64,000 nt of DNA. Origin: an uncultured Bacteroidota bacterium. GTDB lineage: Bacteria; Bacteroidota; Ignavibacteria; UBA10030; UBA6906. The stretch is taken from NCBI GenBank assembly GCA_963700635.1, contig CAVOYH010000003.1, forward strand, positions 1,184,001 to 1,248,000, written 5' to 3'. Position 1 is the first letter of the stretch, and each line of letters opens with the position of its first letter. Below the pieces are notes generated by a model. The model saw only the letters and a list, made by a program, of their open reading frames with translations. It had not been told where the DNA came from and made no database searches. Below, piece by piece: positions 9,727-45,455 of the stretch. The translations under genes were made by a program, and so were the position numbers.

Positions 9727-11106
9727 CTATCCAAGTTTGATCTGATACTGCTGGATCTTGGTATAAAGGGTTTTCAGACTTATCCCGAGAATTTTTGCTG
9801 ATTCAGCTTTGTTTCCCCTGAAGCTCCTCAGGACTCCTTCGATATGGAGGTGTTCGATTTCTTTGAGAGCCATTGCCGTGCCCAGTTTCTGGTCCCCGCC
9901 CCCTCCGGCGGACAGTGACAGTGACGCATTCGGCAAAGAAAAATCCTGCGGCTCGATCACTCCGTTCCGGCAGAGAATCGCTGCACGTTCGATTACATTC
10001 TCCAGTTCCCGGATGTTGCCCGGCCAGTCGTATCCCATGAGGACTTCCATTGCCTTCGGGGAGATCGTGGTTTGCACCTTCGTTTTCATCCGATTGGCAA
10101 GAAACGTCGCAACCAGCAAAGGAATGTCCTGTTTGCGCTGGCGCAGGGAAGGAATCTCGATAGTGATCACATTCAGACGGTAGAGCAAGTCTTCACGGAA
10201 GCGTCCCTCCCGGACCTCTTCCTTGAGATTCTTATTTGTGGCGGAGAGGATGCGCACATCCGCATTAAGCGGTGTATTGCCGCCGACCCGCCGGAATTCT
10301 CCGCTCTGGATAAACCGGAGGATTTTTGGCTGCACGACGGGGCTGATATCGCCTATTTCGTCCAGGAAAAGTGTTCCGTTGTTGGCGATTTCGACGATTC
10401 CCGGTTTTGTTGCCCGGGCATCAGTGAAGGCCCCTTTTTCGTGCCCGAACAGCTCACTTTCGATGAGCGTGTCCGGGATGGACGCGCAGTTCAGGGTGAC
10501 AAAGGGTGCATCCGCACGGAGGCTGTTTTTGTAGATAAAGTTGGCGACAAGTTCTTTGCCTGTCCCGCTCGGGCCCTGGACGAGCACCGTTGATTCGGTC
10601 GGAGCCACTTTGGCCGCGATTTCCAGGACTTTCTGGAAGGCTTCGCTCGTTCCGACCATTTGCTGGGTGCCCTGGAGCCGGTCGAGAGCGTCTTTCATCA
10701 GGAAATTGTCGATCATCAGCTGCCGGCGTTCGAGTGCCCGCCCGATGGTCGAAAGCAGCTCGTCTGCCGTTGTCGGCTTGGAAATGTAATCATATGCGCC
10801 AAGACGCATGCATTCGACAGCCGTTTTTACGTCGGATGCCCCGGTTAACATGATCACTTCGATTCCGGGGTAGTTATTCTTGACGAACTTGAGCACCTCG
10901 ATGCCGTCGACCTTCGGCATCTTCACATCGAGCAGGACGACATGGTACAGCTTGGTCTGGACGGCATTAATTGCCGAGACACCATCCATAACGGTGTCGA
11001 CCGAGTACCCTGCCGTGCTTATGAGTGAAGACAGGAGATACCGAAAGGTCTCTTCGTCATCAACAACGAGGATAGAGGAGTCTTTTTTGGTCGTGGTCGT
11101 GGGCAT
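9727..11106 (-). CDS. NtrC-family sigma54-dependent response regulator
   Basis: Receiver (VVDDE, LLDVKMP), AAA+ (GPSGTGKE, ESELFGHEKGAFTDA, LFLDEIG, WPGNIRELEN) and Fis-type HTH. Confidence 0.93.
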   Translation of the reverse strand: MPTTTTKKDSSILVVDDEETFRYLLSSLISTAGYSVDTVMDGVSAINAVQTKLYHVVLLDVKMPKVDGIEVLKFVKNNYPGIEVIMLTGASDVKTAVECMRLGAYDYISKPTTADELLSTIGRALERRQLMIDNFLMKDALDRLQGTQQMVGTSEAFQKVLEIAAKVAPTESTVLVQGPSGTGKELVANFIYKNSLRADAPFVTLNCASIPDTLIESELFGHEKGAFTDARATKPGIVEIANNGTLFLDEIGDISPVVQPKILRFIQSGEFRRVGGNTPLNADVRILSATNKNLKEEVREGRFREDLLYRLNVITIEIPSLRQRKQDIPLLVATFLANRMKTKVQTTISPKAMEVLMGYDWPGNIRELENVIERAAILCRNGVIEPQDFSLPNASLSLSAGGGGDQKLGTAMALKEIEHLHIEGVLRSFRGNKAESAKILGISLKTLYTKIQQYQIKLG

Positions 11107-11213
11107 TTTGTCTCAGCCCTATATAGAGAAAAGCTCAGTCAAAATCAACCTTTGATTGATTTTAACTCCGCCAGTTTGTATTTTTTCTAATGTCAAACCT
11201 CACTCGCTCCCCT

Positions 11214-12308
11214 ATGCACATCACAGAACGGTTCATCCGCACACTCCCCAAGGTTCTTCTCCACGATCATCTGGACGGCGGGCTGCGTCCGATGACGATT
11301 ATCGAGCTGGCGAGGGACCAGGGATACGGGGGACTTCCGACAAACAATCCCGAAAAATTGGCTGAATGGTTTCACCGCGGGGCCCGGCGGGGGAGTCTTC
11401 CGTTGTATCTTGAAGGATTTGCCCACACCACGGCGGTCATGCAGACCGAAGAGGCGCTCGAACGGGTTGCCTACGAGATGATGGAGGACATGAAGGAGGA
11501 CGGCGTGGTATACGTTGAAACCCGCTTCGCTCCGGTCTTCCACACCGAAAAGGGACTTCACTGGGACGAGGTTGTGAGCGCAGTTCTTCGAGGGCTCGAG
11601 AGGGGAAAAAAGGACTTCGGCGTTGAATACGGGGTCATTCTCTGTGCCATGCGCAACATGAAAAATTCACTGGAAACCGCAGAACTTGCCGTGGATTTCC
11701 GGCAGCGCGGTGTCGTGGGTTTTGACCTTGCCGGCGAAGAGGGGGGATACCCTCCCAAGAAACATGTGGATGCGTTTCATTACATCCAGCGGGAAAACTT
11801 CAACATTACCGTTCATGCCGGTGAAGCCTTTGGGAAAGAAAGCATCTGGCAGGCATTACAGTGGTGTGGCGCACACCGCGTCGGTCATGCAACCCGTCTG
11901 GTGGAAGATATCGGTCTGGACGTGCACAACCGCAAAAAAATCATCCGCATGGGATACCTCGCCCAGTATGTTCTGGACAAACGCCTTCCGCTGGAAATAT
12001 GTCTGACAAGCAATGTGGATACGGGCGCGGTGAAAAATCTCGAAGAGCACCCGTTCGGTCTGTACTACAAGTACAAGTTCCGGGTTACCTTGAATACCGA
12101 CGATCGGCTGATGAGTGACACCACGATGACAAAAGAATACCGGATCGCGCATCAGGTGTTTAAGCTCTCGCTGGAGGATCTTGAGAAACTGACTATCAAT
12201 GCAATGAAGAGCGCGTTTCTGCCCTACAACCGCAGAATCCAGATCATTTACGATGTCATCAAGCCCGGATTTGCGATTGCACACCGGCGTCTGTCAAGAA
12301 AGAAATAA
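11214..12308 (+). CDS. add: Adenosine deaminase
   Basis: LPKVLLHDHLDG, FDLAGEE, TVHAGE, RVGHA, NTDDRLMS motifs. Start 11214 or 11190; candidate promoter TTGATT-N17-TATTTT at 11156-11184. Confidence 0.93.
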   Translation: MHITERFIRTLPKVLLHDHLDGGLRPMTIIELARDQGYGGLPTNNPEKLAEWFHRGARRGSLPLYLEGFAHTTAVMQTEEALERVAYEMMEDMKEDGVVYVETRFAPVFHTEKGLHWDEVVSAVLRGLERGKKDFGVEYGVILCAMRNMKNSLETAELAVDFRQRGVVGFDLAGEEGGYPPKKHVDAFHYIQRENFNITVHAGEAFGKESIWQALQWCGAHRVGHATRLVEDIGLDVHNRKKIIRMGYLAQYVLDKRLPLEICLTSNVDTGAVKNLEEHPFGLYYKYKFRVTLNTDDRLMSDTTMTKEYRIAHQVFKLSLEDLEKLTINAMKSAFLPYNRRIQIIYDVIKPGFAIAHRRLSRKK

Positions 12309-12808
12309 TGAAACTCTATCTTGTTCGCCACGCCGAGGCGAAACCTGTCGGCGGAGCAATCACCACGGATGCCGCCCGGCCACTCACCGACGAGGGGGAA
12401 CGGGATGCGCTTCTGATGGGACGCGCACTGGCGCGCATCGAATCACGCCCGATGGAGCTGGTGTGCAGTCCGCTCCTCCGTGCTACACAGACCGCAGCAC
12501 TCATGAGCGAGGGGCTTCCGGGACATCCGGCATCACAAATCTGGGAAGATCTTGCACCCGGCGCGCGTCATAAGGCCATTGTGGCGCGGTTGACCACCAC
12601 GTCGGCGAAAGCGCTGGTGCTGGTCGGGCATCAACCCGACATCACCATTCTGGTTGCCTACCTCGTGGCTGACGCCGCTGTGGAAATTGCGATGAAGACC
12701 GGTTCAATGGCGTGTGTCAGCCTCGTACCGGCCAACGCACTAAACAGCGCTCGTCTGCGCTGGCTGTTGACCCCGGACCTTGTCCGAGCACTCTCCCCGG
12801 AACTCTGA
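12308..12808 (+). CDS. sixA: SixA-family phosphohistidine phosphatase
   Basis: LYLVRHAEA, RPLTDEG, SPLLRATQTA, LVGHQP. TAATG overlap with the add stop. Confidence 0.88.
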   Translation: MKLYLVRHAEAKPVGGAITTDAARPLTDEGERDALLMGRALARIESRPMELVCSPLLRATQTAALMSEGLPGHPASQIWEDLAPGARHKAIVARLTTTSAKALVLVGHQPDITILVAYLVADAAVEIAMKTGSMACVSLVPANALNSARLRWLLTPDLVRALSPEL

Positions 12809-12819
12809 CGGAGGCCTAA

Positions 12820-13302
12820 ATGCAGCTTTCGGTCGTGCGCATTGAAAAACCGGCTGACATGAATTTCCTCCTCGGCCATGCACACTTCATCAAGACTGTT
12901 GAGGATCTGTACGAGACGATCGTGCAAACAAATCCGGCGATGAAGTTCGGTCTTGCCTTCTGTGAGGCTTCAGGTCCCCGCCTTGTCCGCGCCGCGGGCA
13001 ATGAGGAACGCCTGATCGAACTCGCAAAGAAGAACGCGGTGTCGATTGCTGCCGGACATACATTCATCGTGTTCATGGAGCAGGGATATCCGATCAACAT
13101 TCTGAATGCGGTGAAAAATGTTTCGGAAGTGTGCCGGGTATTCTGCGCTACAGCCAACCCCACGGAGGTGCTGGTCGCGGAAACAGACCAGGGGCGTGGT
13201 ATTCTCGGTGTCATCGACGGAGAAAAGCCCATCGGTGTGGAAACACCCGATGACGTTGTAAAGAGGAAAGAATTCCTCCGTACCATCGGCTATAAAATGT
13301 AA
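12820..13302 (+). CDS. DUF355 / 'adenosine-specific kinase' family protein
   Basis: GHAHFIKTVEDLYE, AFCEASGPRL, AGHTF, CATANP, GRGILGVIDG, FLRTIGYK. SD GGAGG. Confidence 0.88.
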   Translation: MQLSVVRIEKPADMNFLLGHAHFIKTVEDLYETIVQTNPAMKFGLAFCEASGPRLVRAAGNEERLIELAKKNAVSIAAGHTFIVFMEQGYPINILNAVKNVSEVCRVFCATANPTEVLVAETDQGRGILGVIDGEKPIGVETPDDVVKRKEFLRTIGYKM

Positions 13303-13376
13303 ACCCACTCTCCCTGCGTTCCGGGAGAAGCGGGCACAGTTCATTCACGGTGTAACGATTAACGAGGAGAAGCCCC

Positions 13377-13757
13377 ATGAAACATTCTCGATTTGCCGTC
13401 GCGATGTTTGCCACCCTTGCAGTGCTCCTCCTGATGGGCACTGGCGAAACCCTCGCGCAAAAGAAAAAGACTCCCGCCAAACCAACGGAACAAACGGCTG
13501 CGCCCGCCGCCCAACCAGCTCCTTCCCCCTCGGCGGTCAGATTGGGAGGCACCATAAAAGACCTGCTCGTGAAGTATAAAGGCGAACTGACGTCGCTCGG
13601 AGTCCTTACACAGGTAGAGTCGGACTATTTTATCGCCGAAGAGGATGGCAAGCCCGTCGTGCATCCTATCAGCACGATCAGGTGGATCAAAATTCTCAAG
13701 GTGGAGGAAGATGCCGATGAGGAGGATTCTCCCAAACTTGATATCCGTTTGCAATAG
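13377..13757 (+). CDS. Hypothetical exported protein with Pro/Ala linker
   Basis: Signal peptide ending TLAQ, PAAQPAPSPS linker, small beta-rich C-domain. SD GAGGAG. Confidence 0.7.
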   Translation: MKHSRFAVAMFATLAVLLLMGTGETLAQKKKTPAKPTEQTAAPAAQPAPSPSAVRLGGTIKDLLVKYKGELTSLGVLTQVESDYFIAEEDGKPVVHPISTIRWIKILKVEEDADEEDSPKLDIRLQ

Positions 13758-13767
13758 AGAGGTCACG

Positions 13768-14247
13768 ATGAAAGTACTGGGAGTTTTTGTCTGTACGCTG
13801 CTTCTGGTGGGATGTACACCGCGCGATGAGGATGTGCGTCGTCTGGTCCGCGACGAGATGCTCGCGCGGTCCGCCAGAACATATTACTCACCCACCGCGG
13901 TGATCGGTCCGTATACCCCGGCGGTGCAGATCGGATCGCTTGTGTTTGTCTCAGGGCAGATTGCCCTCCATCCGGAAACGGGCCAGATGATCCAGTCCGA
14001 TATCGAATCGGAAACCCGGCAGGTGCTCAATAACCTCCGGACCGTCCTTGCTGCGGCGGGATGCGATTCGTCGGATGTGGTCAGCGCAACGGTCTATCTC
14101 AAGAATATGAACGACTACCAGCGCATGAACGCCGTCTACGGCACCTTTTTTCCGGAAGGCAAGTATCCCGCGCGCGCGGCCGTGGAGGTCAGCAATCTGC
14201 CAAAGTCAGCAAACGTAGAGATTGCGGTTATAGCAGTGAAGGAGTGA
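13768..14247 (+). CDS. RidA/YjgF-family imine deaminase with N-terminal lipoprotein signal
   Basis: [16 protein letters not shown] lipobox, then [24 protein letters not shown] (catalytic Arg), LPK and VEI. Confidence 0.85.
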
Positions 14248-14249
14248 GT

Positions 14250-15917
14250 GTGAACCCTGCTGAGGGCTTTGATCCTCGGTCCATACGCGCTCCCCGCGGG
14301 ACGGAGTTGAGCTGCAAAGGGTGGGTGCAGGAGGCGGCGCTGCGCATGCTGATGAATAACCTCGATGCCGAGGTCGCAGAGAAGCCGGAAGACCTGATCG
14401 TGTATGGTGGGGTAGGAAAAGCGGCCCGCAACTGGGAGTGTTATCACACGATTGTCAGGACATTACGTGCGCTCGAAGACGATGAAACCCTGCTGATTCA
14501 ATCGGGCAAACCTGTGGCCGTGTTCAAAACCCACCCCCATGCGCCACGGGTGCTCATTGCCAATGCACTGCTCGTCCCACACTGGGCGACATGGGATGAA
14601 TTCCGCCGGCTGGATGCACTTGGCCTGACGATGTACGGCCAGATGACGGCAGGCAGCTGGATCTATATTGGCACGCAGGGAATCCTCCAGGGAACGTATG
14701 AAACCTTTGCGGCTGTTGCCGGCCGATCATTCAACGGATCGCTGGCAGGCAAGCTGCTCGTGACCGCCGGACTTGGCGGTATGGGAGGGGCGCAACCCCT
14801 TGCCGCAACCATGAATGGGGCAGCGTGCCTTGCCGTCGAAGTGGACCGCTCCCGGATCGAACGACGCCTCAAGACCGGTTATGTCGACGCGATGACCGAG
14901 TCCCTTGACGAAGCGTTACTCATTCTACAGACTGCAAAGGAACTGAAGGAAGCGCGCTCCGTTGCCCTGCTCGGTAATGCCGCAGAAGTTTTGCCCGAAC
15001 TGCTTGCCCGGCGTATCATTGTGGATGTGTTGACCGATCAGACCTCCGCGCACGACATGCTCAACGGATATGTGCCTGCGCACATGCCCTATGAAGAAGC
15101 TCTCGGACTGCGCGCATCCAATCCCACACGGTATACCCAACTCGCGCGGGCGTCCGTTGTGGAACATGTGGAGGCAATGCTCGGCCTTATGGAGCGCGGT
15201 GCCGTGACCTTCGACTATGGCAATAACATCCGCGGTGAAGCCCTTGCCGGGGGGCTCGATAGGGCTTTTACGATTCCCGGGTTTGTTCCCGAATACATCC
15301 GTCCGCTCTTCTGTGACGGGAAGGGTCCCTTCCGCTGGGCTGCGCTGTCCGGCGATCCCGAAGATATCTACCGTACTGACCGTGCCCTGCTGGAGGCGTT
15401 TCCCGAGAATGCCGGCCTACGTCGCTGGATCGAAAAGGCCCGGCAGCACGTACACTTCCAGGGTCTTCCTGCAAGAATCTGCTGGCTCGGTTATGGTGAG
15501 CGGGCGATTATGGGCAGCATCTTCAATGATCTGGTAGCGCGCGGGGAAGTTCGGGCGCCGATCGTCATCGGAAGAGACCATCTGGATTGCGGATCGGTAG
15601 CTTCTCCGAACCGGGAGACCGAAAAAATGCTGGATGGCAGTGATGCCATTGCCGATTGGCCGATCCTCAACGCACTCCTGAATGTCGCCGGTGGAGCCAG
15701 CTGGGTGAGTGTTCACCACGGCGGAGGTGTCGGGATGGGACTGTCGTTGCATGCCGGAATGGTTGTCGTGGCCGATGGTACCCCCGAAGCAGCAAAACGG
15801 CTGGAGCGCGTGCTGACCTACGATCCCGGGATGGGGATCGTACGCCATGCCGATGCCGGATATGAACGGGCAAGAATAAATGCGCGCGAGCACGGCCTGA
15901 ATATGCCCATGCTCTGA
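14250..15917 (+). CDS. hutU: Urocanate hydratase
   Basis: [77 protein letters not shown] start at 14250 or 14244. Confidence 0.97.
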
Positions 15918-15972
15918 GATGCGGCCCTGTACTCCACCCCCACAGTGTACTCACATTATCACGGAGGTCCGT

Positions 15973-16359
15973 ATGCACGGTTTTGGTCATGTTGATATCC
16001 CCTCGACAAATCTGAAGAAGACAAAGAAGTTCTTCGGTGCGGTGTTCGGTTGGACATTCGAGGATATTCCTGAAATGGACTATGTGCTTTTCCGTGCAGG
16101 AACACAACCGAACGGGGGTTTTTTTATGGTGAAGAAGATGCCCAAGAAGGGGCAGGTGAATGTCTACATCGAAGTGGAGGATATTGTTTCCAAGTTGAAG
16201 GAGATCAAAAAGGCCCGGGGCAAAGTGCTGGTGAAGAAAACGGAAATAGGCGGGATGGGGTGGTTTGCCCAGTTTGCAACTCCCGATGGTTGCTTTCTCT
16301 CCCTCTGGCAGGCGGGTCCCGCACAATCGCTTGAAAGCGGTTCCCCGACGGTCGGATAA
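15973..16359 (+). CDS. VOC/glyoxalase-like protein
   Basis: HVDIP, FFGAVFGWTF, VYIEVEDI, GMGWFAQFATPDG. SD GGAGG. Confidence 0.85.
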   Translation: MHGFGHVDIPSTNLKKTKKFFGAVFGWTFEDIPEMDYVLFRAGTQPNGGFFMVKKMPKKGQVNVYIEVEDIVSKLKEIKKARGKVLVKKTEIGGMGWFAQFATPDGCFLSLWQAGPAQSLESGSPTVG

Positions 16360-16365
16360 CACGTT

Positions 16366-16581
16366 TTGAACGAAACACTGACCCGGCGACCGGTACCGGA
16401 ATTTTCAGGATTGTGCGCCTCCTGTGTTTATGCGCAGATGCATGCCTCCGGTCGGGGGTCAGTGTTCGTGCTGTGTGCCCTCTCCCGGACACGCCCATCA
16501 TACCCCAGATACCCCCGCATTCCGGTCCAGAGCTGCAGCGGGTTCTCGCGTGAATCCGGGGCCGGTGAGGAACATTGTTGA
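16366..16581 (+). CDS. Small four-cysteine protein (putative metal-binding)
   Basis: GLCASC...RGSVFVLC...YPRYPRIPVQSCSGF. Fills the gap between two co-oriented genes; TTG start. Confidence 0.6.
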   Translation: MNETLTRRPVPEFSGLCASCVYAQMHASGRGSVFVLCALSRTRPSYPRYPRIPVQSCSGFSRESGAGEEHC

Positions 16582-16608: not shown

Positions 16609-17821
16609 ATGCTCGATCCGGTTCGCTTTAAACGTATTCTGATCAAGATCCTGAAACTCCTGATCATCATCGAATTGATCAGCGCGTTTCTGGAAGGGCT
16701 GACTCTGGATATGTGGGGTCGCTTCGGCACAGACCTCATCATCGCCGGTATCCTGTATGTCACCTGGGAACGTATCACCATGGTGCTCCGCGGGCGTAAG
16801 GAGCATGCACGGCGAAGGGTTGAGACAGCAGGACAGAATCTTAAGATCCAGGACGCCTTCATCTTTTCGCTTCTATGGAGCGATGAGATCATTCAGGAAA
16901 TTCCGCAGGACCGGCGCCGGCTTGTGATCACTGCCATCACCATCATTGCCGCAGGCCTTGTCCTGGCATTTGTCAAGATCGGAACCGGCCTTATGCCGCT
17001 GGTCATCTCGGGTGTTGTTGTGCTGGGAGGGGTGAATCTCCTGACATGGCTCGTCTCACTCGAACGTGTTGGCAGGGAGACACTGCAGACGGAGCTCCGC
17101 CTCGCGCACAGTGTGCAAGTGTCCCTGATGCCGAAAGAACAACCGGTTGTGAAGGGGTATGACATTGCGGGAATGTCACTGCCCGCGCAGGAGGTTGGTG
17201 GAGACCTGTATGATTTCTCCTGCCACAACAACAGTCAAAGCGAACTCTGTATTTCTGTGGTGGATGTTTCCGGGAAAGGTATGCAGGCGGCCATGGCGGC
17301 GGTTTTTACCAGTGGCGCGCTGGCGAGTGAAATCCGGCAATCCGACTCGCCTGCCCGTATTCTCACGCACCTGAACCGCGCAGTCTTCGAACATTCGCGT
17401 CGTGGACAGTTTGTGGCTTTTCTTCTCGGCAGGATCACGGCACGGAAAAAACGTTTCATTTTTTCCAATGCCGGTCAGACGAAACCGCTTCTGCGCCGCG
17501 GAAAGACGCTCCGCTGGCTGGATGGCAAAGGAGTACATTTCCCTCTGGGGATACGCGCCGACACCGAATACGAAGAATATGCGATAGATCTCCGCAAGGG
17601 CGACATTGTGTTTCTGTCTGACCGATGGATTTACCGAAGCGATGAACATCACCCGGGAGCCGTACGGATACGATCGTCTGGAGCGTCTTGTTGGCGCGGC
17701 GGATCTTAATACCCTCTCGGCGCCGGATATCATTGCCCGTCTCACTGACGACGTCAGACAGCATACAGGCGAAGCACCGCAGCATGATGATATGACACTT
17801 GTTGTCCTGAAGGTACACTGA
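16609..17821 (+). pseudogene. Membrane-anchored PP2C/SpoIIE (RsbU-like) phosphatase, split by a +1 frameshift near 17617
   Basis: The first frame has TM helices, VGGDLYD, DVSGKG and NAG. The TDGFTEA and DDMTLVV motifs lie in another frame (ORF 17606-17821). GTG TTT CTG T CTG ACC GAT GGA has one extra base. May be a sequencing error. Confidence 0.8.
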
Positions 17822-18995: not shown

Positions 18996-20243
18996 GTGAA
19001 CCTATTTGTCAAGAACATACGGCAACTTGTCACCGTTGCCGCCCATGGCAACCCGACGCGGTCTGCTCAGGAAATCCAGGACCTGGGGATCATCGAAGAT
19101 GCGGGTGTCCTCTGCCGGGAGGGCAAGGTCGCCTGGGTTGGACCGATGGCCTCTTTTGCCGGGCGGCTTCCGGACGATATACCCGAGCTGGATGCGTCCG
19201 GGGCAATCGTCGTACCCGGATTTGTCGATTCGCATACGCACATGATGTTTGCGGGAGACAGAGCGGAGGAGTTTGCTCTCCGTGCGCGTGGAACGTCGTA
19301 TCAGGAAATCGCCGAACAGGGTGGAGGCATCCTGCATACGGTACGCCATGTCCGCGCCGCCTCTAAAAAGGAGCTCAAACGATCGACCGCAGCATTCCTG
19401 TGGGAGATGATGAAACATGGAACGACGACGGTGGAGATCAAGACGGGGTATGGTCTTGACATGGACACCGAGATCAAGATGCTGGAAGCGATTCATGAGC
19501 TCAGCGAGGAGGAAATGGCGACGGTCGTTCCCACCTTCATCGGCGCTCATGCAGTCCCGCCAGAATTCAAGAAAGACGTCGAAGGGTATGTCCGGCTTGT
19601 CGTCGAAAGAATGATTCCCTATGCCGGAAAGAAACGCCTGGCGGTCTTCTGTGACGTGTTCTGTGAAAAGGGATACTTCACGCCCGAGCAGGCCGAGGAG
19701 GTCCTCGTTGCCGGGAAGTCCTGGGGAATGCTTCCCAAAATTCATGCGGAGGAGCTCACTTCGTTCGGGGGGGCTGAACTGGCAGCCAGACTTGGTGCCG
19801 TATCGGCAGACCATCTCGAGCATGTTACACCGGCGGGTATCAGGGCATTACGCGAGGGGAAAGTTGTTGCCGGACTGTTGCCCGGCGTGTCGTTTTTTCT
19901 GAACCACGGTTATGCCCCTGCGAGGGCGCTCATCGACGGTGGAGTGCCTGTAGCGCTCGCATCGGACTTCAACCCGGGTTCGTGTATGTCCTATTCGATG
20001 CCCCTGATGATGACCATTGCGTGCACCCAGATGAAGATGACTCCGGAAGAAGCACTTACGGCGGCCACACTGCATGGTGCGGCGGCCCTCAATCTTTCCG
20101 CCACCCACGGAAGCATCGAAGTGGGAAAACAGGCAGATCTCCTTGTCGCGGCGATTCCGGATTACCGGCATCTGATCTATCACTTTGGCGCCAACCATAT
20201 CCGTCACACCATTAAAAATGGAACCCTTCTTGAAATCCCGTAA
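18996..20243 (+). CDS. hutI: Imidazolonepropionase
   Basis: PGFVDSHTH, GGGILHTV, EIKTGYGL, DVFCEKG, KIHAEE, SADHLE, ASDFNPGS. Confidence 0.96.
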   Translation: MNLFVKNIRQLVTVAAHGNPTRSAQEIQDLGIIEDAGVLCREGKVAWVGPMASFAGRLPDDIPELDASGAIVVPGFVDSHTHMMFAGDRAEEFALRARGTSYQEIAEQGGGILHTVRHVRAASKKELKRSTAAFLWEMMKHGTTTVEIKTGYGLDMDTEIKMLEAIHELSEEEMATVVPTFIGAHAVPPEFKKDVEGYVRLVVERMIPYAGKKRLAVFCDVFCEKGYFTPEQAEEVLVAGKSWGMLPKIHAEELTSFGGAELAARLGAVSADHLEHVTPAGIRALREGKVVAGLLPGVSFFLNHGYAPARALIDGGVPVALASDFNPGSCMSYSMPLMMTIACTQMKMTPEEALTAATLHGAAALNLSATHGSIEVGKQADLLVAAIPDYRHLIYHFGANHIRHTIKNGTLLEIP

Positions 20244-20254
20244 CCGGAGAAATT

Positions 20255-21277
20255 ATGCCTGCTCTTGTTGAGTGTGTTCCGAATTTTAGCGAAGGCCGGG
20301 ATCTGAATGTTATCAGTGCGATAGGAGAGGCAATTCGCACCGTGAAGGGGGTGACTCTGTTGAGTGCGGAACCGGACAAGGACTACAACCGCACGGTTAT
20401 CACGCTTCTGGGCACGCCGCAGGCGGCTGGCGAAGCGGCCTATGCAGCTACCCGGACCGCCGCCCGATTGATTGACATGCGCCATCACCACGGAGAACAT
20501 CCCCGTATCGGTGCAACGGATGTTGTCCCATTTGTACCCGTCTCGGGGGTGACCATGGACGAATGCGTTCAGCTGGCACGTCATTTTGGCCGCCGTGTTG
20601 GCGAGGAGCTGCGGATACCTGTCTATCTGTATGAAGAAGCGGCGACCCGTCCGGAACGGAGAAATCTTGCCACCGTTCGGAAGGGTGAATATGAAGGACT
20701 TGCCGAAAAGCTGCAGGACCCGGCCTGGATTCCGGATTTTGGTCCTGCCGTGATGAATGAAAAGTCGGGCGCGACCGTCACGGGCGCGCGGCTCTTCCTC
20801 GTTGCATACAATGTAAATCTGAATACCAACGATCCGAAAATCGCCCAGGAAATCGCCCTCCGTATCCGGGAGAGCGGCCGCGTTAAAAAAGACGATGACG
20901 GTAATCCGGTACTTGATTCCAAGGGCCGGAAGATCACCGTGTCCGGAACACTCAAAGCAGTGAAGGCAATGGGAGTGCTCCTCGAGGCTCACCAAATCGC
21001 TCAGGTGTCGATAAATCTTGTAGATTTCCAGGTGACACCTCCCCATGTAGCTTTTGAAGAAGTTAAACGGCAGGCATTAACACTTGGCGTGGAAGTGACG
21101 GGAAGCGAAATCATCGGGCTCACTCCACGTGAAGCGCTCCTTATGGCCGGCAGATACTATGCGCCAGCAGTGACCGACGACCGGGCATTAGTGGCTGTCG
21201 CCGTTGAACGGCTCGGCCTGAGCCAGCTTGAGCTTTTTGATCCCGCAAAAAAAGTTATCGAGTATCAACTTTCTTGA
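20255..21277 (+). CDS. ftcD: Glutamate formimidoyltransferase
   Basis: ECVPNFSEGR, DYNRTV, HHGEHPRIGATDVVPF, GARLFLVAYNVNL, AQVSINL. Confidence 0.94.
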   Translation: MPALVECVPNFSEGRDLNVISAIGEAIRTVKGVTLLSAEPDKDYNRTVITLLGTPQAAGEAAYAATRTAARLIDMRHHHGEHPRIGATDVVPFVPVSGVTMDECVQLARHFGRRVGEELRIPVYLYEEAATRPERRNLATVRKGEYEGLAEKLQDPAWIPDFGPAVMNEKSGATVTGARLFLVAYNVNLNTNDPKIAQEIALRIRESGRVKKDDDGNPVLDSKGRKITVSGTLKAVKAMGVLLEAHQIAQVSINLVDFQVTPPHVAFEEVKRQALTLGVEVTGSEIIGLTPREALLMAGRYYAPAVTDDRALVAVAVERLGLSQLELFDPAKKVIEYQLS

Positions 21278-43423: not shown

Positions 43424-45187
43424 TTACTCTTCGAAGGGAATTTCGGGCACTTTGTTTCGTATAATGGACGACAGGTACTCACGGATTTCAGGACCACGGG
43501 TCATGCCGAGGACTTTTTCCGCCACCCGCCGGGCGTCTTTATATTTGATGGACCGGATGATCTTTTTTATCTCCGGAAGGACGTGAGGAATAACGCTGAG
43601 CTCGTCCACGCCCAGTCCGACGAGCAGAACGGTTGCGATCGGATCTCCGCCCATTTCGCCGCAGACACCCACCCAGTTCTTTTTTTTGTGCGCAGCCTCT
43701 ACGATCTGATGGATGGTGCGGATCACTGCAGGATGAAACGGTTGGTACAACGCGGCAACCGCATCGTTGCCACGGTCCACGGCCATCATGTACTGTACCA
43801 GGTCGTTTGTCCCGATACTGAGAAAGTCCACTTCCGCGGCAATCTGTTCGGCCATGAGGGCGGCGCTCGGGACTTCGATCATCACGCCGATTTTCATTTT
43901 TGCGTCAAAGGGAACGCCCTGCGTACGGAGTTCTTCCTGGGCTTGCCGGATGAAGGCCCTGGCGTGTTGTACCTCTTCGATGGTTGCGATCATGGGAAAC
44001 ATGACCCGCACATTACGTCGGACGCTCGCGCGGATAATAGCGCGCAGCTGGTCAAGAAAGATCTCAGGCCGGTCCAGCAGGACGCGGATACCGCGCCAGC
44101 CGAGGAACGGATTTTCTTCATGATGTGCACTGGGAGAAAGTTTGTCGCCCCCGACGTCGAACGTCCGGAAAATCACCGGATGGGGGAAAGCGGCATCTGC
44201 GACCTGCGTGTACACCTGAGTCTGCTCCTCTTCGCTGGGATATTCCGCCCGCCCGATCAGCAGACTTTCGGTACGGAACAAGCCAACCCCCTCCGATCCC
44301 TGGACTTTTGCAAACTCGATCTCATCGGGTAATTCGATATTGGAAGAAAGTTCGATGTGTTTACGGTCGAGGGTTTCTGCCGGCAATCCGGCGATACCCG
44401 CGAGTTTCTCTTCAAAGGCCCTGAACCGGCCGGCCTTAGCGTCGAGGGCCTGCAGTGTCGCCCCGGAGGGATTGATGATGAGTAGGCCGGCGTAGCCATC
44501 GATGGCGACCGTATCGCCCGTTTTGACCACACGCGTTGCGTTTCTGAGTCCGACCACAGCCGGGATCTTGAGGGTTCTGGAGAGCAGGGCAGCATGTGAT
44601 GTTACACCGCCCAGATCGGTGGCATACCCGAGAACGTTGTTCCTGCTGAATATTACGGTGTCTGCGGGGGCCAGCTTCTCCGAAATGATGATTGATGCAC
44701 CTTCCAGACGGGAAAAAAGTTTCTGATCCTGGATATTACGAATGATTCTGTTCATCACGTCGTCCACGTCATGCGCGCGTTCGTGCATGTATTCATTCGT
44801 GGAGGCCATCATCAACTGTTTGTACTTGCTGATCTCATCGGACACGACATATTCGGCGTTCCGGAGTTCGTCAACAATCCTGCGTTCTATGGTGCCCATG
44901 AGGATGGTATCACCGAGGATCATGATCTGCGCTTCAAAAATCGTCGCACTGTCAGAACCAAGTTTTTGTTCGGCGAAGGCATGAACTTTCCGGAGTTCCT
45001 TTTCCGCACGGGCGTTTGCGTTGCGAAGGCGTTCGATTTCGGCGGGGACGTCCTCGGGAGTGATGATGCGTGCATGGACTTCCGGTATCAGTTTGGAATA
45101 GAGATAGGCGGAGCCCGTCGCGATGCCGGGGGCGGCCGCGACACCCTTGATAATAAATTCATTGTGCGTGTCAGCTTCTTGCGTCAT
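43424..45187 (-). CDS. ptsI: PTS enzyme I (PEP-protein phosphotransferase)
   Basis: GGVTSHAA (phospho-His), GVGLFRTE, RTFDVGGDK, NPFLGWRGIR, SIGTNDL, VCGEM. Confidence 0.95.
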   Translation of the reverse strand: MTQEADTHNEFIIKGVAAAPGIATGSAYLYSKLIPEVHARIITPEDVPAEIERLRNANARAEKELRKVHAFAEQKLGSDSATIFEAQIMILGDTILMGTIERRIVDELRNAEYVVSDEISKYKQLMMASTNEYMHERAHDVDDVMNRIIRNIQDQKLFSRLEGASIIISEKLAPADTVIFSRNNVLGYATDLGGVTSHAALLSRTLKIPAVVGLRNATRVVKTGDTVAIDGYAGLLIINPSGATLQALDAKAGRFRAFEEKLAGIAGLPAETLDRKHIELSSNIELPDEIEFAKVQGSEGVGLFRTESLLIGRAEYPSEEEQTQVYTQVADAAFPHPVIFRTFDVGGDKLSPSAHHEENPFLGWRGIRVLLDRPEIFLDQLRAIIRASVRRNVRVMFPMIATIEEVQHARAFIRQAQEELRTQGVPFDAKMKIGVMIEVPSAALMAEQIAAEVDFLSIGTNDLVQYMMAVDRGNDAVAALYQPFHPAVIRTIHQIVEAAHKKKNWVGVCGEMGGDPIATVLLVGLGVDELSVIPHVLPEIKKIIRSIKYKDARRVAEKVLGMTRGPEIREYLSSIIRNKVPEIPFEE

Positions 45188-45188
45188 A

Positions 45189-45455
45189 TCAGTTCTCCCC
45201 GAACCCCTGTTCGAACAGTTCCACCAATGCCGTGGCCGCCTGCTCTTCATCGGGACCGTTGAAGATCAGTTTCATTGACGACCCCTGTTCGGCGGCGAGC
45301 GTCATGACTCCGATGATGCTCTTCCCGTTGATTTCAAAGATTCCCTTTTTGATGAAGAAGTCAGCTTTAAACCGGGAAGCGGTCTTTACAATCGCAGCCG
45401 CGGGACGTGTGTGCAGGCCTGCTTTGTTCACTATGGTGACAGTGCGTTCGACCAT
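45189..45455 (-). CDS. ptsH: Phosphocarrier protein HPr
   Basis: GLHTRPAA (His15) and NGKSIIGVM (Ser46). Confidence 0.96.
   Translation of the reverse strand: MVERTVTIVNKAGLHTRPAAAIVKTASRFKADFFIKKGIFEINGKSIIGVMTLAAEQGSSMKLIFNGPDEEQAATALVELFEQGFGEN

Follow-up and report, generated by a model that had tools for sequence, protein, structure and literature searches.

The 64,000-nucleotide (nt) stretch of an uncultured Bacteroidota bacterium that was analyzed here (the window, G000:C3:1184001-1248000) carries three consecutive genes on its plus strand that encode an adenosine deaminase (add), a SixA-family phosphohistidine (pHis) phosphatase (sixA), and a protein of the PF04008 family (also known as DUF355 or "Adenosine_kin"). 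The add gene spans 11190–12308 (372 amino acids [aa], PF00962 and NF006847 matches), sixA 12308–12808 (166 aa, TIGR00249 match), and the PF04008 gene 12820–13302 (160 aa, full-length PF04008 match). The TAA stop codon of add (12306–12308) shares one base with the ATG of sixA (12308–12310), which results in a TAATG junction. The TGA stop codon of sixA lies at 12806–12808, and the 11-nt spacer that separates it from the PF04008 gene (12809–12819) contains a GGAGG sequence at 12810–12814, 5 nt 5' of the ATG at 12820. A first-pass annotation of this DNA had described add and sixA as coupled by TAATG and DUF355 as following 11 nt later with a strong Shine-Dalgarno (SD) sequence, and both the coordinates and the GGAGG bear this out. 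The start that it gave for add, 11214, is in the right frame but is an alternative internal ATG, because the open reading frame (ORF) opens at 11190. The add-sixA-PF04008 order recurs in 26 of the 29 genomes of the window's family, and the layout is therefore no chance juxtaposition. The three genes form a genuine, tightly coupled operon, which we regard as a lineage-restricted purine-nucleotide operon.

The three proteins were assigned to their families by profile searches, and the catalytic motifs that the first-pass annotation had considered intact were all present. Add matched the A_deaminase family (PF00962, E=1.3e-101) and the NF006847 adenosine deaminase model (484.9 bits, cut-off 412). 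HDH, HAGE, GH, and TDD motifs are visible in its translation, and we take these to be the metal and catalytic motifs of adenosine deaminase; from its family membership, the protein is predicted to convert adenosine to inosine and ammonia. SixA matched His_Phos_1 (PF00300, E=7.2e-12) and, over the complete profile (1–154 of 154), TIGR00249 with 80.7 bits, which exceeds the cut-off of 74.5 by a narrow margin; weak secondary matches were to the CobC and dPGM models. It is a single-domain protein that can be aligned end to end with solved SixA proteins, of which E. coli SixA (1ujb, E=6e-6, residues 1–156 aligned to 1–152) and Alr0221 (3f2i) are the closest. Residues R7, H8, R58, and H108 are present in the window SixA and were kept in 54 to 55 of 55 orthologs encoded beside PF04008, and in 11 of 11 SixA proteins encoded beside add only. 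Carrying their roles over from the E. coli enzyme, we presume that they represent the RH motif with the catalytic histidine, the second arginine, and the second histidine. The PF04008 protein matched Adenosine_kin over its full length (E=2.6e-73, 245.3 bits, profile 1–154 of 154), and its solved relatives are ST1511 (2ekm), TTHA1091 (1vgg), and PAE2307 (2jb7, 1wvq, and 2gl0) (E=1e-64 to 3e-51). Its H22 and H80 residues, the latter within an AGH motif, were invariant in 55 of 55 aligned orthologs and conserved in the aligned PDB homologs. Both genes are unique in the window's genome, which contains one PF04008 copy and a sole TIGR00249 match, that of the operon sixA.

Published activities of PF04008 proteins do not agree with each other. 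As summarized in PMC10248530, PAE2307 binds adenosine and AMP and carries a phosphorylated conserved histidine, and these two properties led to the proposal that the family are kinases. The same article cites a report of the T. thermophilus homolog as an ADPase (ADP to AMP), and states that the T. maritima protein had neither kinase activity nor phosphatase activity on AMP, ADP, or ATP, being inactive on adenosine, AMP, ADP, and ATP. With no activity found for the T. maritima protein and an ADPase activity reported for the T. thermophilus protein, "adenosine kinase" is the name of the family rather than its established function. The premise of an adenosine-specific kinase activity in the first-pass annotation, which had proposed that the pHis-forming DUF355 protein may be the substrate of the adjacent SixA, is therefore weak (PMC10248530). 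It had also described SixA as having very few known substrates, a list that has now grown to four: ArcB, NPr, PfkA, and Ndk (PMC12934123, PMC11974560). E. coli SixA acts on PfkA-pHis249, and the H8A mutant of SixA is inactive (PMC11974560). Moreover, E. coli SixA removes the phosphate from the pHis intermediate of Ndk (Sinha & Goulian 2026, PMC12934123). According to that article, this pHis sits at the base of the nucleotide cleft, its hydrolysis means that a nucleoside triphosphate (NTP) is spent without a new NTP being formed, and the defect of an E. coli sixA mutant is suppressed by increased nucleoside uptake. The SixA-Ndk work provides direct precedent for a reaction of the type that had been proposed for the window. 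A literature search found no paper tying SixA to PF04008 or to add, in line with the statement of the first-pass annotation that it knew of no description of this module.

To place the operon in a wider context, we analyzed the neighborhoods of PF04008 genes in two surveys. The first comprised the best 80 of 485 confirmed PF04008 loci from species-representative genomes, in which all ORFs were searched with an iterated profile of the window SixA; 4 of the 80 loci have less than 200 nt of upstream flank. sixA was found directly upstream and on the same strand in 18 of these 80 loci, and all 18 belong to the 31 loci titled Bacteroidota, Ignavibacteriota, Kryptonia, or Chitinophagales. In none of the 49 loci titled with other phyla (Acidobacteriota/Terriglobia, Chloroflexota, Actinomycetota, Verrucomicrobiota, Calditrichota, Desulfobacterota, Thermotogae, and others) did sixA lie beside the PF04008 gene. 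Locus L046 contained just an unrelated SixA match on the opposite strand. The neighbors of PF04008 elsewhere were considered as a clue to its function and set aside, the Acidobacteriota-type loci showing uninformative housekeeping genes (lepA, xseA, and genes for a D-Ala-D-Ala carboxypeptidase and a TPR-GGDEF protein). Across a sample of the phylum, 19 of 201 genomes contained PF04008, 18 of them from the window's order; within the order, 128 of 151 genomes had it.

The second survey was of the order itself and included 127 loci with approximately 4 kb on each side, annotated with the proteins of the window (a cut copy in G317 was excluded). Counts are direct phmmer/jackhmmer matches on stop-to-stop ORFs, and the upstream flank was at least 700 nt in 124 of the 127 loci. 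sixA preceded the PF04008 gene on the same strand in 57 of the 127 loci, all in four of the nine families: f1, the window's family (26 of 29), f2 (27 of 31), f45 (2 of 3), and f46 (2 of 2). No adjacency was found in the 62 loci of the other five families (f3, 0 of 13; f4, 0 of 3; f44, 0 of 11; f47, 0 of 3; f5, 0 of 32). Hence, the pairing on which the first-pass annotation had built is kept across four families of the order but is missing from five of the nine families and from the 49 loci of other phyla. In f1 the gap between sixA and PF04008 is mostly 8 to 65 nt. add was found upstream of PF04008 on the same strand in 29 of the 127 loci, all of them in f1; in part of this family (L146, L161, L171, L180, L200, L240, and L242) a gene for a predicted lipoprotein of approximately 165 aa (with a conserved N-D-x-C-x-C-E after the lipobox) lies between add and sixA. 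On a hutU tree built from 79 loci, at least 6 changes are needed to account for the presence or absence of sixA beside PF04008; this tree is unrooted and the species tree is unknown, and gains and losses of adjacency are therefore indistinguishable. The SixA of the operon evolves fast, with 55% identity to its same-genus ortholog and 23% to 33% to the f2 orthologs, compared with 61% to 81% among PF04008 orthologs. Fusions of PF04008 to His_Phos_1 or A_deaminase were not found among 53 PF04008 proteins of 281 to 2000 aa, which is weak evidence. The longer proteins did include fusions to a CCA-adding enzyme (P0036; PolyA_pol and HD domains; 641 aa; 9 member sequences on 4 contigs) and to a cytidylyltransferase-like domain (P0044; 307 aa; 4 members on 3 contigs), and several forms of approximately 300 aa bear an unannotated extra half. 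These fusions hint at nucleotidyl or terminal-adenosine chemistry. Complex prediction of three PF04008 copies with the SixA partner, run with alignments, gave no answer (score 0.00, no controls) and counts neither way.

TIGR00249 matches at E<=1e-16 were present in 129 of the 151 genomes of the order, frequently two per genome, and we analyzed their relationships in a tree of 126 SixA sequences, including 60 fetched copies that are not adjacent to PF04008 (quick IQ-TREE with SH-like approximate likelihood ratio test [SH-aLRT] support only and weak deep branches). A group of 39 copies represents a second paralog, the context of which contains neither add nor PF04008 (L223–L244, L248, L256, L267, L276, L281, and others). 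In 25 loci the gene directly upstream of it encodes a CHAD-domain protein; Ppx/GppA comes before the CHAD gene in 20, and 5 have PPK1 in the vicinity. This locus is a polyphosphate cluster. Because PPK1 works via a pHis intermediate, the ppx-CHAD-sixA cluster could be another operon that joins SixA with a substrate. The window's genome does not contain this second paralog. The remaining copies, including that of the window, constitute paralog A, which is linked to add and/or PF04008. In two PF04008-adjacent loci (L093 of genome G073, and L043) sixA is split into two overlapping frame pieces and is possibly a pseudogene; G073 has an intact second paralog on another contig.

The context of paralog A differs between families and shows that sixA and PF04008 have been retained independently of each other. 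It is add-sixA-PF04008 in f1, RR54-sixA-PF04008 in f2, and sixA-PF04008 in f45 and f46, with neither add nor PF04008 adjoining in f5, f44, and f47. Two f1 genomes (G245 and G285) have add-sixA and no PF04008 in the genome. In f3, add-sixA was found in 9 of 11 loci; six of the f3 genomes with this pair are without PF04008 (G109, G161, G224, G240, G248, and G312), and in three others (G228, G232, and G292) PF04008 lies elsewhere in the genome, beside hutU in G232 and G292. In f3, the gene that comes after the A-type sixA on its strand encodes an alpha-glucan phosphorylase-like protein of approximately 705 aa (DUF3417 and Phosphorylase) in 11 of 11 loci, with add directly upstream in 9 (L082, L083, L245, L247, L249, L250, L252, L254, L255, L258, and L259). 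One f2 genome (G069) keeps RR54-sixA-RidA-hutU and has its PF04008 gene on another contig. Conversely, sixA is gone in genus g114 (G257, G289, and G313), where add abuts PF04008, and the same arrangement was found in L007 and L027. A TIGR00249 match at E<=1e-16 is missing from at least 14 genomes that carry PF04008, and PF04008 from at least 14 genomes that carry SixA; some of these assemblies are incomplete. The partners have thus not been gained and lost together, each being retained singly in several genomes of the order. Since SixA persists beside add without PF04008, and PF04008 persists without sixA, neither gene depends on the other.

Other candidate substrates of SixA are encoded in the same genome. 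It has two Ndk genes and two genes for Hpt-domain proteins, and the window itself contains, on the minus strand, enzyme I (EI) of the phosphotransferase system (PTS) (43424–45250, with PEP-utilizers domains) and beside it an HPr/NPr homolog (about 45210–45452, G000:C3:1229210-1229452; PF00381, 99.5 bits). Judged by these family assignments, the documented types of SixA substrates (Ndk, EI with HPr, and Hpt) are present. Because paralog A is the only SixA of this genome, the window protein presumably serves whatever general SixA role exists there.

The genes that flank the operon connect it to histidine catabolism. Downstream of PF04008 lie, on the plus strand, a small ORF (13377–13757) that has no Pfam match and whose product starts with a signal-like segment, homologs of which were found at this side in many f1 loci, and a gene for a RidA/YjgF-family protein with a lipoprotein-like N-terminus (LLVGC; 13765–14247; Ribonuc_L-PSP, E=6e-40), homologs of which lie downstream of PF04008 in 58 of the 127 loci. 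Both products (13377–14247) look exported, unlike those of the cytosolic operon upstream. They are followed by hutU, encoding urocanate hydratase (14241–15917, plus strand), for which the listed ORF begins at 14061 and the true start is probably after the RidA stop; a homolog in another locus (L027:3904-5574) carries the N, Rossmann, and C domains of urocanase. hutU was found within 4.5 kb downstream of PF04008 in 102 of the 127 loci, directly abutting it in 33. Compared with 57 of 127 for sixA, this makes urocanase the most persistent neighbor of PF04008 in the order, a linkage not seen in the other phyla surveyed. The window continues with genes for a VOC protein, a SpoIIE-type phosphatase, a DUF5700 peptidase, an amidohydrolase (18996–20243), and a formiminotransferase (20255–21277). 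Since hutU, the amidohydrolase, and the formiminotransferase are among these downstream genes, PF04008 heads a histidine-utilization (hut) cluster. The phosphatase inside the cluster (16609–17709, plus strand) is of the SpoIIE/PP2C type and has an N-terminal membrane-like region. On the other side of the operon, an NtrC-type sigma-54 response regulator is encoded divergently (9727–11106, minus strand; Response_reg, Sigma54_activat, and HTH_8), with a homolog up to 4 kb upstream in 47 of the 127 PF04008 loci of the order. The sigma-54 -24/-12 pattern was rejected as evidence that this regulator controls the operon, as the window contained 6 matches where 4.8 were expected and none upstream of add. 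A promoter and terminator scan of 10900–16500, which was judged uninformative, detected no terminator-like site on the plus strand between 11716 and 16275 and 2 promoter-like sites where 2.8 were expected.

The interpretation that we favor, with a little less than an even chance of being correct, is that the operon co-expresses adenine nucleoside and nucleotide functions, and that its SixA is a general pHis phosphatase for which PF04008 is at most one of several targets. The three genes would constitute one co-translated adenine nucleoside/nucleotide operon heading the hut cluster, inherited vertically within a single order of an uncultured Bacteroidota/Ignavibacteriota-type lineage. As in E. 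coli, the SixA paralog may remove phosphate from pHis intermediates and carriers that set the flow of nucleotide phosphoryl groups, namely Ndk, EI/HPr, and possibly PF04008. The PF04008 protein would bind adenosine or AMP and probably acts on an adenine nucleotide via its invariant His80, ADPase activity being reported for one homolog. The linkage would then reflect co-expression of functions for the run-down or recycling of the adenylate pool, rather than an obligate, dedicated pair of enzyme and substrate. The functions of the operon products are those that we infer, and several observations speak against this interpretation. sixA and PF04008 have stayed paired while SixA diverged to 23% to 55% identity, and in f2 they stayed adjacent after add moved away; such persistence is greater than is usual for random gene order and would agree with a direct functional link between the two. 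The SixA paralog linked to add and PF04008 is distinct from the one linked to ppx-CHAD and could be specialized for its local partner, and the role as a general phosphatase is an extrapolation from E. coli, a distant organism.

In a sharpened form of the model of the first-pass annotation, which we consider possible but doubtful, PF04008 would use an adenine nucleotide to autophosphorylate on His80, and the SixA encoded next to it would be its dedicated pHis phosphatase. SixA could in this case reset or switch the enzyme, or turn the stable pHis into net hydrolysis and make the pair an AMP/ADP phosphohydrolase that feeds Add. The tight coupling with its 11-nt gap and SD sequence, the immediate upstream position of sixA relative to PF04008 (57 of 127 genomes, the 57 belonging to four families), and the conservation of the SixA active site (54 to 55 of 55) and of His80 (55 of 55) all argue for this. 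So do the pHis and the adenosine/AMP binding of PAE2307 and the ADP-to-AMP cleavage by the T. thermophilus homolog, as given in PMC10248530, and the hydrolysis of Ndk-pHis by SixA as described in PMC12934123. However, the adjacency is limited to one order (0 of 49 loci in other phyla, 0 of 62 in five families of the order itself), intact paralog A is kept without PF04008 and PF04008 without sixA, and in f3 paralog A stays with add and not with the PF04008 of the same genome. The absence of His_Phos_1 fusions among the 53 longer PF04008 proteins and the inactivity of the T. maritima homolog on adenosine, AMP, ADP, and ATP, as stated in PMC10248530, also argue against it. The specific form in which PF04008 shifts the AMP phosphate (or the ADP beta-phosphate) to His80, which would yield the "stable" pHis observed in the crystal, and SixA hydrolyzes that pHis, the two proteins together being the phosphohydrolase, seems unlikely to us. 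If it were true, it would give PF04008 a function and explain why isolated homologs look inactive; PF04008 would become the fifth SixA substrate and the first whose gene shares an operon with that of the phosphatase; and the operon, together with Add, would turn adenylates into inosine, phosphate, and ammonia, a starvation or nitrogen-scavenging route at the head of the hut cluster. Another explanation is that the SixA-like protein is a small-molecule phosphatase acting on an adenine nucleotide and producing adenosine, for example from AMP or 2'/3'-AMP, in a chain from ADP via AMP and adenosine to inosine with PF04008 as the ADPase. In its favor, add and sixA remain paired in f1 and f3 whether PF04008 is present or not. 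Branch 1 of the histidine phosphatases is rich in such enzymes, the weak CobC and dPGM matches point in this direction, and PMC10248530 cites a report of ADPase activity in a PF04008 homolog. On the other hand, the best family match is SixA itself, above the cut-off and over 1–154 of 154 positions, and the closest structures are E. coli SixA and Alr0221. The architecture is a minimal one of approximately 160 aa, presumably without the substrate-capping segments of metabolite phosphatases, and the literature examined gave no nucleotide phosphatase activity for a SixA-type protein. We consider this explanation very improbable. The linkage could finally be functionally meaningless, an ancestral arrangement that is still unbroken in some families. 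The neighborhood of RR54, RidA, and hutU is syntenic in the same genomes, the 6 or more adjacency changes on the hutU tree indicate that the linkage breaks easily, and some f1 loci have an unrelated lipoprotein gene that separates add from sixA. Against this, the translational coupling (TAATG, 11 nt) has been maintained, the adjacency has been kept at 23% to 30% SixA identity between f1 and f2, and each of the three products has to do with adenine nucleosides, adenine nucleotides, or phosphoryl groups. This makes mere residual synteny rather improbable.

PF04008 is widespread, occurring in archaea, Thermus, Thermotoga, and many soil phyla. Six structures of the family have been solved and a phosphohistidine has been reported, and its published activities either contradict each other or are absent. 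The operon described here, which joins it with a phosphohistidine phosphatase and an adenosine deaminase, is a testable lead to its function, rather than a demonstrated new system. It is also relevant to the question, raised by the SixA-Ndk work of 2026, of how widespread the control of nucleotide enzymes by SixA-type phosphatases is. Should the genes be linked by co-regulation only, the locus is an ordinary lineage-specific cluster of purine and histidine catabolism. The gene families are all known, and the proposed logic is paralleled by the published SixA-Ndk case. Neither the operon nor the presence of two SixA paralogs, one linked to add/PF04008 and one to a polyphosphate cluster, appears to have been described before.

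The E. coli SixA-Ndk system resembles the window operon in that a SixA-family phosphatase is tied to the nucleotide and nucleoside economy. The target here would likewise be a catalytic pHis at a nucleotide-binding site, with net consumption of a phosphoanhydride or phosphoester without transfer. PMC12934123, in the sections examined, does not report E. coli sixA as sharing an operon with its target, and the candidate target in the window is the PF04008 protein rather than Ndk, in a genome that also has two Ndk genes. E. coli SixA also has NPr, from the nitrogen PTS, and the HPt domain of ArcB as substrates, as summarized in PMC12934123 (see also PMC6282199 and PMC7948535). The window SixA belongs to the same TIGR00249 family, and its genome encodes EI, HPr/NPr, and Hpt proteins. 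However, the sixA of the window lies 32 kb from the EI and HPr genes and is co-translated with add and PF04008. The PF04008 protein is homologous over its full length to PAE2307, TTHA1091, and ST1511 and has the conserved AGH histidine; published activities of this type of protein disagree (kinase proposed, ADPase reported, none detected), and the parts of the literature available on them mention no partner phosphatase. The ppx-CHAD-sixA(-ppk1) clusters of the same order are similar to the window operon in placing a SixA-family gene within an operon of phosphoryl-transfer enzymes, but the window SixA is the other paralog and has other partners.

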